Source: an uncultured Phycisphaeraceae bacterium (GTDB lineage: Bacteria > Planctomycetota > Phycisphaerae > Phycisphaerales > UBA1924). From it: 54,244 bases of DNA. Each line of letters starts with the position of its first letter. Positions within the stretch are counted from its first letter, which is position 1. Of this stretch, positions 1 to 27,868 are shown piece after piece. The stretch is from positions 1 through 54,244 of the forward strand of contig CAYGNN010000001.1 of assembly GCA_964351165.1 (NCBI GenBank), read 5' to 3'. The translations under genes were made by a program, and so were the position numbers. The notes under the pieces were generated by a model. It searched no databases. It was not told the DNA's origin and saw only the letters and a program-made list of their open reading frames with translations.

Positions 1-551
1 GCAGGGGCCAGGCGGTGGTCGAGGAAGGCCTCAGGGCCGGCTGGGTCAACGCAGGCATGGACGATCTCGACAGGGCCGGCGACGCAGGTGTCGCCCTCGG
101 CCATGACCTGGGCAACACCGGGGTGGGCGCTGTCGGTCGTGCGGAAGACGTTGGGGATCTCGAGGTCCTTGTCGTGGGCGAAGACCTCTTCGACGGTCAT
201 GATCGCCTGCAGGACCTCCTGCCCTGTGGAGGGGGCGGTCGCGTAGAGGGCGACGCGCTCGCCGACCTTGGGGGCATCGGCGCTGTCCACGCTGAGCAGG
301 ATCGGGATGGGCCAGATGTCGCCGGAGGCGAGCTTCATGTCCTTGCAGACGGACTCGAAGTCGGCCTTGGCCATGAAGCCCTTGAGGGGGCTGAAGGCGC
401 CCATGCCGATCATCTCCAGGTCGCAGGACTGCTTGGCGGAGAGGTCGATCCGCTGCAGCGAGCTGGCCTCGCTCTTGAGGGCGTCGCGCTTGGAGTCATC
501 GGCGATGCAGTTGACGAGCTCGCCGCCGTGGGGGGTGATCAGTCCTGACAT
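1..551 (-). CDS. sat: sulfate adenylyltransferase (ATP sulfurylase), N-terminal part; the C-terminus lies beyond the window start
   Basis: Reverse-strand frame is open from the ATG at 551 to the window edge, so it is absent from the ORF track (no stop in the window). Translation MSGLITPHGGELVNCIADD...DLEMIGMGAFSPLKGFM...DIWPIPILLSV matches the N-terminal PUA-like domain of ATP sulfurylases. AAGGAAG RBS sits just upstream. Confidence 0.85.
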   Translation of the reverse strand, partial: MSGLITPHGGELVNCIADDSKRDALKSEASSLQRIDLSAKQSCDLEMIGMGAFSPLKGFMAKADFESVCKDMKLASGDIWPIPILLSVDSADAPKVGERVALYATAPSTGQEVLQAIMTVEEVFAHDKDLEIPNVFRTTDSAHPGVAQVMAEGDTCVAGPVEIVHACVDPAGPEAFLDHRLAP

Positions 552-840
552 GGTTCTCGCTTCCTTGGTAGGGCTTTGGTGGGGCCTGGTTTGGGCGAAG
601 TCCACCCGCGCCCGGGGCTGGTCATTGGGGGTCGTTCGGTCACGTTGGCCGGTGATTGGTTGAGCCCGGCCAGAATCAGGACGATAGGATCGAACCGACC
701 GCTCCCAGACGACGTTTGATGGTCGGCACTGTAGGACGCCTCTCCCTCTGGGGCAGGCGAAAATGACCATTTTTCACGCTGATCGGCGTGGCGCCAGGCC
801 GCCCCGGCGACCTGATTTTCAGCACCAATTGGAGACTTCG

Positions 841-1899
841 ATGGCTACCCCCAAGCGAGCACTCATCACCGGCGTCACCGGCCAGGACGGCAGCTACCTC
901 GCCGAGTTCCTCCTGGGCAAGGGCTACGAGGTCCACGGCATTATCCGCCGCTCCAGCTCGTTCAACACCGAGCGCATCGACCAGATTTATCAGGACCCGC
1001 ACATCGCCGGCGCCAAGCTCAAGCTGCACTTCGGCGACCTCACCGACGCGAACAACCTCGCGAAGCTCATCTCCGAGATCGAGCCGGATGAGGTCTACAA
1101 CCTCGGCGCCCAGAGCCACGTCCGCGTCTCATTCGACATGCCGATCTACACCGTGGACTCCGTCGCGATGGGCGCGATGAAGCTCATCGAAGCGGTCCGC
1201 GATCAGCAGCAGCGCACCGGCAAGCAGATCCGCTACTACCAGGCCTCGTCGAGCGAGATGTTCGGCAAAGTCATGGAGACGCCGCAGAAAGAGACGACGC
1301 CCTTCTACCCCCGCTCGCCCTACTCGTGCGCGAAGGTCTTCGCGCACTGGATCGCGGTCAACTACCGCGAGAGTTACGACCTGCACGCCAGCAGCGGCAT
1401 CCTCTTCAACCACGAGAGCCCCCGCCGGGGCGAGACGTTCGTCACGCGGAAGATCACCCGCGCCGTCGGCCGCATCAAGCTGGGCCTGCAGGACAAGCTC
1501 TACCTGGGCAACCTGGACGCCAAGCGCGACTGGGGCTTCGCCGGCGACTACGTCGAGGCGATGTGGATGATGCTCCAGCAGGACACCCCCGACGATTACG
1601 TCATCGCCACCGGCGAGACGTACAGCGTCCGCGAGTTCTGCATCGCCGCCTTCGAGTGTGCGGGCCTCGACTGGGAGGACTATGTTGAGTTCGATCCCAG
1701 GTACCTGCGTCCTGCGGAGGTCGAGCTGCTGCTCGGCGACCCGACCAAGGCCAGGAAGGCGCTGGGCTGGGAGCCCAAGGTCGGCTTCAACGAGCTCGTC
1801 CGCATGATGTACGAGTCGGACATGGAGCTGGCCGAGCGCGAGAAGACCCTCAAGGACGCCGGCCACGCCATGCCGGCGCACTCCGGGCACGATCAGTAA
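841..1899 (+). CDS. gmd: GDP-mannose 4,6-dehydratase
   Basis: ATG at 841 is preceded by [51 protein letters not shown] and later blocks ([36 protein letters not shown]) are classic Gmd. The upstream part of the 763 ORF is a basic, low-complexity extension. Confidence 0.95.
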
Positions 1900-1944
1900 C
1901 ACTTCCCGCCCGGCCTCGGGCGTTCAACGACGACGGAGTTTCGA

Positions 1945-2931
1945 GTGACGGACCTGACCAAGCAACGGATCGTGGTCACCGGTGGCGACGGCTTCCTCGG
2001 GCGCGTGCTGTGCCGGACCTTGCGTGATCGGGGCGTCCCCGATGACTCCATCTTCGTGCCTACGTACCCAGAGTACGACCTCACGGAAGTGGAGGCGTGC
2101 AAGGCGCTGTACCGCGACGCCTTCAATGGCGAGCCGGTCGATCTCGTGATCCACCTCGCCGCGGAGGTGGGGGGCATCGGCGCCAACCGCGAGAACCCAG
2201 GCCGCTACTTCTACGCCAACATGGCGATGGCCCTGCACCTCATCGAGCAGTTCCGCGCGATGGGGCTGGGCGAGACCGGCAAGTTCGTCCAGATCGGGAC
2301 CATCTGCGCCTACCCCAACCTCACGCCAGTCCCCTTCAAGGAGGACGATCTGTGGAATGGGTATCCGGAGGTCACCAACGCGCCGTACGGCATCGCCAAG
2401 AAGGCCGCGTGGCAGATGCTCGACGCGTACAAGCTCCAGTACGGCATGAACTCGTCGTACGTCCTCCCGGTGAACCTCTACGGCCCAGGCGACAACTTCA
2501 ATCCGAACTCGAGCCACGTCATCCCGGCGCTCATCCGCAAGTGCTGCGAGGCGATCGACGCCGGCGCTGACCACATCGAGTGCTGGGGCACCGGCAGCGC
2601 GAGCCGCGAGTTCCTCTACGTCGATGACGCGGCCGCCGGCATCGTCCGGGCCGCGGAAGTCATGGACGACCCGACCCCGATGAACCTGGGCGCGGGATTC
2701 GAGATCACGATCAAGGACCTCATCGAGCTGCTGGTCGAGCTGACCGGCTTCGAGGGTGAGATCCGCTGGGACCACACCAAACCAGATGGCCAGCCCCGAC
2801 GCTGCCTCGACACCAGCCGCGCGAAATCGCTGCTGGATTGGGAGGCGAAGATGGACTTCCGCGAAGGGTTGAAGCGTACCATTGAGTGGTGGCGCACCGT
2901 CGGGGCGCCGGCGCAGGAGGTCCGCTCGTGA
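1945..2931 (+). CDS. fcl: GDP-L-fucose synthase (GDP-4-keto-6-deoxymannose 3,5-epimerase/4-reductase)
   Basis: GTG start. Blocks [50 protein letters not shown] and [27 protein letters not shown] are typical of Fcl/WcaG. It sits directly downstream of gmd. Confidence 0.9.
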
Positions 2932-26079: not shown

Positions 26080-26138
26080 CAGCGTGCAGGGTCATCCCAA
26101 CATCGGCGCAGAAACCGCGCTACATGACGCCGCGCTGG

Positions 26139-27164
26139 TCAGTCGGCGTCCAGATCGACCCGCATCCCGAGGGAGTCGATCGCCTCGATGATCGAGCCGT
26201 GGAGGCCCGGGGCTGCACAAACGATGCCCCGGTTCATCTTCAGGGTTGATCCGTGCGAGAAATCGAGCCCGTTGTCGTTGATGTCGCTCACCGGGCGGCC
26301 GGCCTCGGTCGCGATGATCATCCCTGCCGCGTGGTCCCAGATCTTCTCGCGGTAGCCAGGCCTGGTCGGCATCCGGAGGTACGCGTCCGCCTGCCCCCTC
26401 GCGACGACCGCGTACTTGCACTGGCTGTCGAGCCGGACGGAGTCGTACCCATTGGGCGCGATCCGCTCCATGATCTTCGCCGTCGCGTCGTGCTTGGAGT
26501 GCGCCGCCTCGACGGATTCGCACATCCGGATGGGCTCGTTCTCGTCGCGTTCGAGCGGCCTGAGATTGACGCCGGCGTCGTCCGGCTTGTCGGCGCGCTG
26601 CTCCCAGACGCCGGTCCCGCCGTACGCGGAGTACATCGTGCCGACCGGGTCAGGGTCGTCCATCGGTCGCGAGAAATCGGCGGAGAGGTTGGGGCACCCC
26701 AGCACACCCAGCACGACGTGCTCGTGATCGATCCACGCGAGGCTGACGGCGTACTGCTGGCCGCGGAGGAAGCCCTTCGTCCCGTCGATTGGGTCGAGCG
26801 TCCAGAACGATCGCGCCGCGCCGTCGTCGTTGCCGATGTCGATCGCGCCCAGGACATCATCGGTCGTCGCGTCGGTCCACACAGTGCGCACCGCCTCGAC
26901 CACCTCGCGCAGGCGCTCGGCGTTCTCCGGCGTGCGGAGTGAAGCGGAATCCTCTTCCGCGACCAGCCGGAACGGTCCGATCGCCTCCGTCATCCGGTGC
27001 GCGATGACCGCCTGGCTGGCGAAGTCCGCGATGGTGACCGGGCTCCGGTCGTCCTTGGTGATCGAGCGGATGCGCTCGAGGTCCTTCTGGACGACTCGGC
27101 ACACGGTCGAAGCCTCGGCGACCGCCCTGCGTGCGGCGGTCAGCGCGTGATCCAGATCAACCAT
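26139..27164 (-). CDS. cysQ: 3'(2'),5'-bisphosphate nucleotidase (PAP phosphatase, HAL2/CysQ family)
   Basis: ATG at 27164 (MVDLDHALTAARRAV). Inositol-monophosphatase-fold motifs are VAEEDS, FWTLDPIDGTKGF and WDHAAG. The WTLDPIDGTKGFLRG block is typical of the HAL2-type subfamily. The upstream 47 codons of the track ORF are rejected. Confidence 0.85.
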   Translation of the reverse strand: MVDLDHALTAARRAVAEASTVCRVVQKDLERIRSITKDDRSPVTIADFASQAVIAHRMTEAIGPFRLVAEEDSASLRTPENAERLREVVEAVRTVWTDATTDDVLGAIDIGNDDGAARSFWTLDPIDGTKGFLRGQQYAVSLAWIDHEHVVLGVLGCPNLSADFSRPMDDPDPVGTMYSAYGGTGVWEQRADKPDDAGVNLRPLERDENEPIRMCESVEAAHSKHDATAKIMERIAPNGYDSVRLDSQCKYAVVARGQADAYLRMPTRPGYREKIWDHAAGMIIATEAGRPVSDINDNGLDFSHGSTLKMNRGIVCAAPGLHGSIIEAIDSLGMRVDLDAD

Positions 27165-27247
27165 CGGGCGTATCTCCTGCGAGGGCGCGCCGCGGCGTCG
27201 GGCGCCGAACGGCGCGGTGTCGTTCAAGGTGTGTTCGTCGGTCCGCG

Positions 27248-27868
27248 TTACGCGGGGCGGATAGCGCCGGTCTCGACGAGGTAGTCGATGCACGCCTCGA
27301 CGCACTCTTCGAGCGACTTCTCGGCGGTCTTGAGCGTCAGCTCCGCGTTCTTGGGCGCCTCGTACGGATCATCGATCCCTGTGAAGCCCTTGATCTCACC
27401 GGCGCGGGCCTTCTTGTACAGGCCCTTGGGGTCGCGCTCCTCGCACACCTCCAGCGGGGTGTCCACGTACACCTCGACGAAACGCAGGCCGGCGGCCTGG
27501 TGCAGCTCGCGGCTCGCGTCGCGATCGGAGAGGTAGGGGCTGATGAAGCTCGTGAGCGTCACCGCGCCGGAATCGGCGAAGAGCTTGGCGACCTCGCTGA
27601 TGCGGCGGATGTTCTCGGCGCGATCCTCGGCGGAGAAGCCCAGGTTCTTGTTGAGGCCGAAGCGGATGTTGTCGCCGTCGAGGCGGTAGCAGTTGTCGCC
27701 GCGGTTGATCAGCGCCTGCTCGAGGGCGGAGGCGATGGTGCTCTTGCCGCTGGCGCTGAGGCCGGTGAACCACATCGTCAGACCCGTCGTGTTGAGCGCG
27801 GCCCAGCGCTCGTCGCGGGCGATGTCGCCCTCGTGCCAGGTGATGTTCGTCGCTTTCTGCTGGGTCAT
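27248..27868 (-). CDS. cysC: adenylylsulfate (APS) kinase
   Basis: P-loop [42 protein letters not shown] and ISPY blocks are canonical CysC. AGAGGAGA RBS lies 7 nt upstream of the ATG. Confidence 0.95.

Follow-up and report, generated by a model that had tools for sequence, protein, structure and literature searches.

Few sulfated bacterial glycans have a known genetic basis, as the first-pass annotation of the DNA studied here had stated, but a capsule locus that carries genes for the supply of 3'-phosphoadenosine 5'-phosphosulfate (PAPS) has already been published for Cobetia marina KMM 1449 (PMC11766843). That locus contains cysNC, cysD and cysQ alongside a sulfotransferase gene and one for a sulfate permease, and sulfation of its product (rhamnose 2-sulfate, Rha2S) is chemically proven. 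The xss cluster of Synechocystis, which is responsible for the sulfated exopolysaccharide synechan, encodes two sulfotransferases, eight glycosyltransferases, Wzx, Wzy and a polysaccharide co-polymerase (PCP), with the OPX (polysaccharide exporter of the outer membrane) encoded elsewhere (PMC8205485). For Pontiella, a member of the Kiritimatiellae, which the source places in the Verrucomicrobiota, a sulfated glycosaminoglycan (GAG)-like exopolysaccharide (EPS) was detected chemically and a candidate cluster of GT2 and GT4 glycosyltransferase genes with a sulfotransferase gene was described (PMC7356697). Here, a 54-kb stretch of DNA from a Phycisphaeraceae planctomycete (the window) was analyzed, in which a glycan block at positions 1–27868 contains PAPS supply genes, a sulfotransferase gene and a gene of glycoside hydrolase family GH56. 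There are precedents for PAPS genes embedded in a locus for a sulfated glycan; what is new here is the phylum and the rare GH56.

The block is read, with a probability of roughly 70%, as a chromosomal locus that builds a sulfated heteroglycan, predicted to be a surface polysaccharide with fucose and uronic acid, by the Wzx/Wzy route with its own PAPS supply. The same core reading had been put forward in the first-pass annotation; it agrees with every test that was run and has the support of comparative genomics, except that sat proved not to be the edge of the locus. It is supported by the intact PAPS motifs of the sulfotransferase, by the presence of the arrangement in two relatives and by the linkage of sat to glycan genes in 10 out of 10 loci.

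PAPS supply genes, sulfotransferase and conservation of the locus

The window has a G+C content of 66%, as a result of which the raw list of open reading frames (ORFs) consists mostly of shadow ORFs. Coding frames were therefore picked by the G+C content of the three codon positions (real genes: GC1 approximately 0.65, GC2 approximately 0.45, GC3 approximately 0.9) and the products were scanned against Pfam and NCBIfam. The Pfam scan covered 44 window ORFs, with a cut ORF at 53684–54244 outside the scan. Overall, 24 genes were identified in positions 1–27868 (table 1). Nearly all functions listed in the first-pass annotation were found in their places, among them gmd, fcl, the extra short-chain dehydrogenase/reductase (SDR), the sulfotransferase, two acetyltransferases, two FkbM methyltransferases, the SGNH esterase, the Wzy_C protein and GH56. 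The list required corrections: five GT4 and one GT2 glycosyltransferases had been counted where there are four and one (five in total, not six), and two conserved genes had been omitted, those for a membrane Exo_endo_phos protein and for a 441-aa protein. Many genes are tightly spaced, with overlaps of 4 nt between fcl and the SDR gene, 4 nt between the two acetyltransferase genes and 1 nt between the second acetyltransferase gene and the gene for the 441-aa protein (a beta-propeller, see below), which is followed by GT2 after a gap of 4 nt; these overlaps and short gaps suggest operons. Scans of the window for tRNAs, Rfam families, promoters and terminators, and tandem repeats returned nothing relevant.

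ATP sulfurylase, adenosine 5'-phosphosulfate (APS) kinase and 3'-phosphoadenosine 5'-phosphate (PAP) phosphatase are all encoded in the locus, the first as a fragment (NCBIfam sulfate adenylyltransferase, E = 6.6e-44, partial match) whose catalytic domain lies outside the window; the full-length ortholog in a relative has 398 aa and comprises the PUA_2 and ATP-sulfurylase domains. The block had been described as flanked by sat at one end and by a permease, PAP phosphatase and APS kinase at the other. These genes are present, but sat is transcribed out of the window and does not form a boundary, and the left flank of the locus beyond the window was deduced from relatives. The permease shows a weak match to Na_sulph_symp (PF00939, E = 1.3e-13) and stays below the cut-off of the subfamily model for DASS (divalent anion:sodium symporters). 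The PAP phosphatase (26139–27164) is of the HAL2 type and not of the bacterial CysQ type, and the HAL2 model TIGR01330 is mainly fungal and plant. For three proteins of the locus (this phosphatase, the SULT-like sulfotransferase and GH56), the closest characterized relatives are eukaryotic enzymes. The earlier statement that cysH and sulfite reductase are missing was borne out, no such domain being present among the 44 ORFs scanned in the 54 kb.

The linkage of these genes was followed in other genomes. A scan in which the sat fragment was compared with the GTDB representatives, one genome for each species, returned 14 loci, with a best sat match of 84%, and the window proteins were mapped onto the sat loci by tblastn. 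In each of the 10 recovered Phycisphaerales loci, sat is surrounded by or adjacent to gmd, fcl, GT4, GT2 and acetyltransferase genes. One of the ten belongs to "Phycisphaerales bacterium ac7" (CP159477.1), whose record carries no metagenome-assembled genome (MAG) label and where the genes run ugd, SDR, gmd, fcl, GT4, GT2, acetyltransferase, sat, GT4 and a Wzy-like gene. Sulfotransferase genes are found at most 10 kb from sat in six loci (L011, L012, L015, L019, L020 and L022), and the compact locus L019 joins sat, GT4, sulfotransferase, Wzy_C, a Wzx-like gene, a gene of the endonuclease/exonuclease/phosphatase fold (EEP), GH56 and a further GT4. In a second scan, the HAL2-type phosphatase was compared with metagenome contigs. 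The cysC-cysQ-permease set is retained in the closer relatives (51–82% identity), and in seven loci (the window, L005, L006, L007 in part, L027, L029 and L030) it is followed by a nucleotide-sugar SDR gene. In L027, L029 and L030 this SDR is UDP-glucuronate (UDP-GlcA)-epimerase-like or of another kind, and CysQ identity falls there to 51–60%. The more distant HAL2-type cysQ homologs (43–47% identity) are mostly solitary on their contigs and have little bearing on the present lineage. The association of PAPS genes with those for nucleotide sugars and glycans is conserved further than common descent of close strains would account for, and the conserved linkages of sat and of cysC-cysQ-permease support a link between PAPS supply and sulfation of the glycan. 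Since sat lies within glycan loci throughout the order, the cell may have no other copy. The PAPS genes may be dedicated to sulfation, as the first-pass annotation proposed, but a sharing of them with sulfate assimilation is compatible with all observations and does not contradict sulfation.

The sulfotransferase has neither a signal peptide nor a transmembrane segment. Its 5'-phosphosulfate loop (PKSGTTW, residues 61–67) and its 3'-phosphate motif (RKGxxGDWKNQF, RKGKAGDWKNQF at residues 264–275) align to the structures of cytosolic SULT enzymes, and its nearest solved relatives are the animal cytosolic SULTs. A total of 458 homologs of approximately 301 aa were found, and the best 120 of the 458 are all at least 50% identical to the window protein. 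The homologs that carry a name, all from Phycisphaerae, are recorded as Phycisphaeraceae, Phycisphaerales or Planctomycetota MAG proteins. The pair of sulfotransferase and WcaI-like GT4 is conserved in three loci (L003, L004 and L010), the two genes overlap in CP075368.1, and the loci of relatives contain up to three sulfotransferases.

A comparison of neighborhoods revealed the same arrangement from end to end in GCA_029260535.1 (JAJDDA010000136.1) and GCA_020639135.1 (JACKHE010000001.1, "HK-STAS-PLAN-10"). The order begins with sat, divergent from gmd, fcl, a methyltransferase gene in some cases and the SDR gene, and continues with GT4 and sulfotransferase, the acetyltransferases, a 440-aa protein and GT2, then SGNH, FkbM and GT4, the series GT4-Wzy-Wzx-GT4, EEP divergent from GH56, and finally the epimerase, permease, cysQ and cysC genes. 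In this comparison sat comes from GCA_020639135.1 only (the other contig stops earlier) and FkbM from GCA_029260535.1. Past cysC the order continues with a Ser/Thr kinase, an ECF (extracytoplasmic function) sigma factor, a hypothetical gene and recO. Conservation is uneven along the locus: between HK-STAS-PLAN-10 (L006/L010) and the window the flanks are 77–93% identical, whereas in the center the sulfotransferase, two of the GT4 glycosyltransferases (GT4c and GT4d), Wzy, Wzx, EEP and GH56 are only 34–56% identical. In the same relative the FkbM genes are swapped for an extra sulfotransferase gene, and a third sulfotransferase gene follows GT4d. Because conserved flanks enclose a divergent center that contains wzx and wzy, the block looks like a variable surface-antigen locus with diversification of the serotype type, and the divergence of GH56 goes with this center and not with the flanks.

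By family assignment, sat, the APS kinase, the HAL2-type phosphatase and the anion permease make up a full PAPS cycle. According to the proposed mechanism, whose supply and transfer steps follow from the family membership of the proteins, gmd and fcl provide GDP-L-fucose and the UDP-GlcA 4-epimerase-type SDR would provide UDP-galacturonate. Sulfate, presumably imported by the permease, would be converted to APS and PAPS by Sat and CysC, and the HAL2-type phosphatase would return the inhibitory PAP to AMP. Five glycosyl transfers would build a repeat unit, attached to a lipid carrier, on the cytoplasmic side of the membrane, where by acetyl, methyl and sulfuryl transfer it would be O-acetylated, O-methylated and sulfated; the location of sulfation is suggested because both PAPS and the sulfotransferase are cytoplasmic. 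The protein of the multidrug/oligosaccharidyl-lipid/polysaccharide (MOP) superfamily would then flip the unit and the Wzy_C protein would polymerize it. Outside the cytoplasm GH56 as an endo-hexosaminidase, the SGNH esterase and the EEP protein as a phosphoesterase might trim, release or size the polymer, and the genes for the priming transferase and for any export proteins of the outer membrane would lie elsewhere.

The family assignments behind the sugar chemistry differ in strength. The fcl product matches NF047922 (E = 1.5e-76) with a score of 258, below the cut-off of 500, and the solved proteins closest to it are without exception GDP-fucose synthases. For the extended SDR at 2928–3989 the NCBIfam and PDB searches returned no equivalog and no specific PDB relative. 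The top three PDB matches of the epimerase-like SDR (5U4Q, 6ZL6/6ZLA and 6KV9, E = 3e-71 to 9e-51) rank above UDP-glucose 4-epimerases, WbgU and WbpP, and a curated equivalog was not reached; these three matches, the Bacillus cereus enzyme 6ZL6/6ZLA, 6KV9 (MoeE5) and 5U4Q (deposited as a dTDP-glucose 4,6-dehydratase), are regarded as UDP-GlcA 4-epimerases. In HK-STAS-PLAN-10, the nearest genome that was found, sat is followed, in the same direction, by genes for a 335-aa SDR and a UDP-glucose 6-dehydrogenase and then by the unrelated UbiA and Met-zincin genes. A UDP-glucose dehydrogenase gene is therefore probably located just left of the window, and its position beyond sat in the relative strengthens the case for uronic acid. 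The WcaI family match of the GT4 at 4040–5404 (E = 2.3e-31) is below its cut-off. Taken together, the enzyme families would fit a fucoidan-like or fucosylated-GAG-like chemistry. Relatives also contain a class-I S-adenosylmethionine-dependent methyltransferase gene between fcl and the SDR gene (L003, 13399–14217; L010, 14896–15804) that is absent from the window.

Table 1. Genes of the glycan block and its right-hand neighbors, with positions in the window
Feature	Position	Strand	Basis
sat (ATP sulfurylase), N-terminal 183 aa only	3..551	-	PF14306 PUA_2, E = 2.5e-51; gene leaves window
gmd, GDP-mannose 4,6-dehydratase	841..1899	+	TIGR01472, 544 bits (cut-off 415)
fcl-like GDP-L-fucose synthase	1945..2931	+	E. 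coli GDP-fucose synthetase 1BWS/1BSV, E = 2e-60
Extended SDR	2928..3989	+	PF01370, E = 1.7e-42
GT4 glycosyltransferase, WcaI-like, directly downstream of sulfotransferase	4040..5404	-	Pfam GT4 domains
PAPS-dependent sulfotransferase, cytoplasmic	5440..6348	-	PF00685, E = 6.2e-29
WcaF-family acetyltransferase (hexapeptide)	6497..7201	+	NF007797, 200.4 bits (cut-off 192)
WcaF-like acetyltransferase (hexapeptide)	7198..7761	+	NF007797, 188.1 bits (just under cut-off 192)
Conserved cytoplasmic seven-bladed beta-propeller, PL22-like fold, 441 aa	7761..9086	+	AF2 model and Foldseek
GT2 glycosyltransferase	9091..9921	+	PF00535, E = 2e-10; 76–89% identical in relatives
Secreted SGNH/GDSL esterase, dockerin-like C-terminus	9951..11498	-	PF00657, 25.1 bits (cut-off 23.6)
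FkbM methyltransferase 1	11551..12591	-	PF05050, E = 4.6e-8; TIGR01444, 63 bits (cut-off 37.7)
FkbM methyltransferase 2	12503..13522	-	PF05050, E = 4.5e-10; true start probably later
GT4 glycosyltransferase	13399..14763	-	Pfam GT4 domains; true start probably later
GT4 glycosyltransferase	14808..16004	+	PF00534, E = 3.2e-33
Wzy_C-family polytopic membrane protein	16051..17571	+	PF04932, 52.8 bits (cut-off 31.7); about 10 hydrophobic segments
Divergent MOP-superfamily membrane protein, Wzx-like	17589..19214	+	About 12 transmembrane segments; families via homologs
GT4 glycosyltransferase	19231..20412	+	PF13692, E = 1.2e-22
Membrane-anchored EEP-fold protein	20409..21461	-	PF03372, E = 1.7e-14; 3–4 N-terminal transmembrane segments
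Secreted GH56 (animal-type hyaluronidase/chondroitinase family)	21699..22910	+	PF01630, E = 5e-54, 183.9 bits (cut-off 23.2)
UDP-glucuronate 4-epimerase-like SDR	22926..23930	-	PDB relatives 5U4Q, 6ZL6/6ZLA, 6KV9
DASS/CitMHS anion permease, two TrkA_C domains	24205..26079	-	PF03600, E = 1.5e-65
3'(2'),5'-bisphosphate nucleotidase, HAL2 type (PAP phosphatase)	26139..27164	-	TIGR01330, 290 bits (cut-off 267)
cysC, APS kinase	27248..27868	-	PF01583, E = 4.3e-72; TIGR00455, 267 bits (cut-off 139)
Ser/Thr protein kinase (854 aa) and ECF-type sigma factor	28009..31626	-	Pfam; co-directional with cysC

Proposed assembly of the glycan and alternative readings

Two membrane proteins are assigned to assembly. 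The Wzy_C protein is assigned as a polymerase, or possibly a ligase. Its C-terminus (17420–17571) is an acidic, His/Asp/Gly-rich low-complexity tail of approximately 60 residues (DEGGDDLWDDEGG…HEYDNEHTDGDEHDHE), which is unusual for Wzy. The second protein had been called a Wzx-like flippase in the first-pass annotation. It has no Pfam, NCBIfam or PDB match of its own, including with a three-sequence profile; its placement in the MOP superfamily was reached through homologs. A HMMER scan of 1.84 billion representatives returned 762 homologs, and among 42 sequences (the window protein and 41 homologs) family matches were found to MatE (8), Polysacc_synt_3 (6) and Polysacc_synt (1), all of which are MOP-clan families (Pfam clan CL0222). 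On this basis the protein is probably a divergent MOP member, and a putative flippase role is reasonable.

Several points weigh against the synthesis of a sulfated polymer as proposed. The nearest solved relatives of the sulfotransferase act on small molecules and are not carbohydrate sulfotransferases, so that a carbohydrate acceptor is inferred by context, namely the conserved operon with GT4. The permease is presumed to take up sulfate, and this substrate assignment is a putative one. The PF04932 family takes in ligases as well as polymerases, and the flippase role of the Wzx-like protein would be transitive, by way of its homologs. A priming transferase, a PCP and an OPX were not found in the window or past sat in a relative: the first-pass annotation had noted the absence of WbaP/WecA and of Wza/Wzc, and the scan likewise returned no Bac_transf or Glycos_transf_4 match and no PCP or OPX domain among the 44 ORFs, while annotation of the flanks in relatives (past sat in L011 for the priming transferase) revealed no priming transferase, Wza or Wzc/Wzz. 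The gene for a priming transferase may lie in another part of the genome, like that of WecA in E. coli. Finally, a literature search on glycan chemistry and genetics and on sulfated glycan synthesis in the Phycisphaerae found no paper.

In an alternative reading, which is unlikely, the sulfated glycan is not polymerized and the single Wzy_C protein acts as a ligase or O-oligosaccharyltransferase, transferring one or a few repeat units onto lipid A-core or surface proteins, resulting in a sulfated O-unit or glycoprotein glycan. PF04932 is named the "O-antigen ligase" family, the best NCBIfam match of the protein is the putative O-glycosylation ligase TIGR03097 (E = 3e-8, far under the cut-off), and neither Wzz/Wzc nor Wza is present in the window or in the flanks of relatives. 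Furthermore, the sulfotransferase/GT4 and acetyltransferase/propeller/GT2 cassette is kept at 50–57% identity across many Phycisphaerae, as would be expected for a core envelope structure. The position of wzy next to wzx is, however, the usual arrangement for a polymerase; the Maribellus mangrovi locus (see below), whose Wzx is a canonical Polysacc_synt protein, shows it too. From strain to strain Wzx and Wzy differ strongly, in the manner of O-antigen and capsule serotype loci, and an endo-glycosidase encoded in the locus (GH56) fits a polymer better, all of which favors polymerization by the Wzx/Wzy route.

A less probable alternative is that sat, cysC, cysQ and the permease gene are ordinary assimilation genes that happen to be located beside a glycan locus, and that the glycan is not meaningfully sulfated. 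The genes sat, cysC and cysQ are also used for assimilation by PAPS-reducing bacteria (cys regulon), and the distant HAL2-type cysQ homologs described above are mostly solitary. The presence of a sulfotransferase with intact PAPS motifs in the locus (up to three in relatives), the lack of cysH and sulfite reductase in the 54 kb, the linkage of sat to glycan genes in every Phycisphaerales locus recovered and the persistence of the cysC-cysQ-permease-SDR linkage down to 51–60% identity speak against it and make it very unlikely.

GH56, its neighbors and the beta-propeller

The GH56 protein has a signal sequence at its N-terminus as well as a linker of low complexity. Its catalytic domain aligns to bee-venom hyaluronidase 1FCQ (E = 3.5e-31), with the catalytic D-F-E of the latter opposite D-Y-E, and also to PH-20 and HYAL1; D142-Y-E144 corresponds to D111-F-E113 of the bee-venom enzyme (residue numbering of 1FCQ), and D142, E144, W146, R204, Y239 and W328 are invariant across the bacterial and animal members. 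A search of a collection of 5.8 billion proteins brought up only eight bacterial or metagenomic clusters with GH56, the window protein included, and both named ones are Phycisphaeraceae; the sensitivity of this search is bounded by word matching. The next matches after the bacterial clusters are amphioxus and insect hyaluronidases with 30–32% identity. The genes are located at 21699–22910 (+) in the window, 10001–11248 in L005, 10001–11185 in L006 and approximately 8542–9549 in L019. A recent horizontal transfer of GH56 was considered and rejected, as it has the same GC3 as the neighboring genes (0.90) and the syntenic orthologs are just 34–57% identical. No paper on bacterial GH56 was found in a literature search.

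By family, the protein is a candidate endo-beta-N-acetylhexosaminidase for hyaluronan or chondroitin. Substrate-assisted catalysis in GH56 requires a 2-acetamido sugar at the -1 subsite, and the polymer made by the locus therefore probably contains beta-linked N-acetylhexosamine (HexNAc). The EEP protein is encoded divergently from GH56, and the pair is conserved in four lineages (the window, L005, L006 and L019). A search of the PDB returned no sequence match for the EEP protein, and a single-sequence AlphaFold model was unusable (pLDDT 45); the protein might cleave a phosphodiester or pyrophosphate link of a lipid-linked glycan. The SGNH protein shows an N-terminal hydrophobic signal and C-terminal repeats that are visible in its sequence, and in another genome (L008) a dockerin-bearing GH56 paralog is found outside any glycan locus.

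The 441-aa protein reached no Pfam or NCBIfam family, and its more than 3095 homologs are annotated as "hypothetical" and have no Pfam model. An AlphaFold (AF2) model based on 30 homologs (pLDDT 89, pTM 0.88) has the oligogalacturonate lyases of family PL22 as its top Foldseek matches (3PE7 and 3C5M, E = 5e-13). The match to 3PE7 (E = 4.8e-13, TM 0.59/0.68, 18% identity) indicates a seven-bladed fold like that of YeOGL, and the family profile also matches 3PE7 by sequence (E = 0.0015). The possibility that the protein is itself a member of PL22 was rejected by sequence (PF14583, 16.6 bits against a cut-off of 30, over the C-terminal 64 residues only). The invariant stretch D398-L-H400-P-R402 aligns to T-H-P-H-P-S of 3PE7, which presumably holds the Mn2+-binding histidines of the YeOGL structure, and one His is the only clear match. 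Other Phycisphaerae have the same run of acetyltransferase, propeller and GT2, as does the Bacteroidota isolate Maribellus mangrovi (L025, 10001–11275), where the triad lies within a canonical Polysacc_synt-Wzx/Wzy locus that also contains a sulfotransferase. In capsule-type loci of the Planctomycetota and Bacteroidota, members of the family always have a WcaF-type acetyltransferase on one side and GT2 on the other, often with a sulfotransferase nearby. A biosynthetic role on a uronic-acid residue, for example abstraction of the C5 proton leading to epimerization or elimination, is a plausible guess.

A more far-reaching proposal, which must be regarded as tentative and rather improbable, is that the product is a sulfated polymer built from HexNAc and uronic acid and resembling animal GAGs, made with a toolkit of SULT-like, HAL2-type and GH56 proteins in which GH56 would size or release the polymer of the cell itself and the propeller would be a new uronate-modifying enzyme, for example a C5-epimerase or 4,5-eliminase acting on the lipid-linked unit. 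If this were true, the GH56 family would have a bacterial biosynthetic branch, with a bearing on the origin of the animal hyaluronidases. The least credible alternative, that GH56, the SGNH esterase and the PL22-like propeller serve the breakdown of foreign GAG-like or pectin-like polysaccharides of animals or algae and were interleaved with biosynthetic genes by chance, can draw on the degradation of hyaluronan and chondroitin by characterized GH56 enzymes, on the dockerin-bearing paralog and on the standing of the Phycisphaerae mainly as polysaccharide degraders, but is contradicted by the constant place of GH56 (divergent from EEP, between GT4d and the epimerase gene) in the window, L005 and L006, by its proximity to sat, sulfotransferase, Wzx and EEP genes in L019 and its divergence in step with Wzx/Wzy, by the lack of a signal peptide in the propeller, whose gene is wedged between those for acetyltransferase and GT2 in four lineages including a Bacteroidota capsule-type locus, and by the absence of an accompanying sulfatase, transporter or sugar-catabolic gene among the 44 window ORFs.

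To the right of the block, the kinase and sigma factor genes are accompanied by a FapA-like or coiled-coil hypothetical gene beside cysC (28009–32810 region), and this trio is kept in all close relatives. The order of kinase and sigma factor genes is the same in three loci (L005, L006 and L026), and the two proteins may be regulators of the locus or may reflect mere synteny. Further along (35511–40821, +) are an alpha/beta hydrolase, a GH3-family adenylating enzyme (plant auxin-amido-synthetase-like) and a 906-aa fusion of an alpha/beta hydrolase and a VTT membrane domain with a weak, sub-threshold ATP-grasp-type match, an odd combination with no apparent connection to the glycan locus. At 44627–50905 (-) there are two neighboring genes of very large size, encoding a 930-aa protein with no Pfam match and a 1150-aa protein with an M14 carboxypeptidase domain.

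Significance and comparison with known systems

In the literature, planctomycetes and Phycisphaerae appear as consumers of sulfated algal polysaccharides, and a report of sulfated glycan production by them was not found. The locus and its relatives, including that of strain ac7, offer a concrete genetic basis for such production in the Phycisphaerae. This bears on the question of which organisms make the sulfated GAG-like polymers present in sludge granules and microbial mats (mentioned in PMC7356697). In practical terms, the locus contains a candidate bacterial carbohydrate sulfotransferase with its own PAPS cycle and a compact bacterial GH56. It also draws attention to a large uncharacterized propeller family that, in at least two phyla, accompanies acetyltransferase and GT2 genes within capsule-type loci. 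Three accessory features stand out: GH56 for its rarity, the EEP protein paired with it and the family of propellers with a PL22-like fold.

Pontiella, a member of the Planctomycetes-Verrucomicrobia-Chlamydiae (PVC) superphylum, can be likened to the present case by description. Its EPS is mainly N-sulfated, and the candidate cluster is presented without mention of a PAPS set or GH56 in the accessible part of the source (PMC7356697). The xss cluster of Synechocystis shares with the window locus the Wzx/Wzy-type organization, one or more sulfotransferases, several glycosyltransferases and, as proposed for the window locus, an outer-membrane exporter outside the locus, but it includes a priming glycosyltransferase, a PCP and regulators of its own and is plasmid-borne; PAPS has no occurrence in the xss paper, whose gene list is without a hydrolase in the locus (PMC8205485). 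The colanic acid locus of E. coli resembles the window locus in its WcaF-type acetyltransferases (NF007797), WcaI-like GT4, gmd and fcl, Wzx and Wzy. Colanic acid is an acetylated heteropolysaccharide with fucose and uronic acid, and the wca locus includes the priming transferase WcaJ, Wza/Wzb/Wzc and pyruvylation, with no sulfation, methylation, GH56 or PAPS genes.

The GH56 protein shares with the animal enzymes (1FCQ, human HYAL1 2PE4 and PH-20 9JUB) the family, the catalytic Asp-x-Glu and the active-site aromatics. Identity to them is 27–32%, the bacterial proteins have no Cys-rich insertion or EGF-like tail and carry a bacterial signal sequence, and the window gene is located in a biosynthetic locus, unlike animal hyaluronidases. 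The capsule locus of C. marina resembles the window locus in being a glycan locus with its own PAPS set and a sulfotransferase. The two differ in export (ABC transporter, kps, in C. marina and Wzx/Wzy in the window), in the sulfurylase (CysD/CysNC versus homomeric Sat) and in the phosphatase (annotated as cysQ versus HAL2-type), and GH56, EEP and PL22-like genes are without mention for this gammaproteobacterium in the accessible part of the account (PMC11766843).

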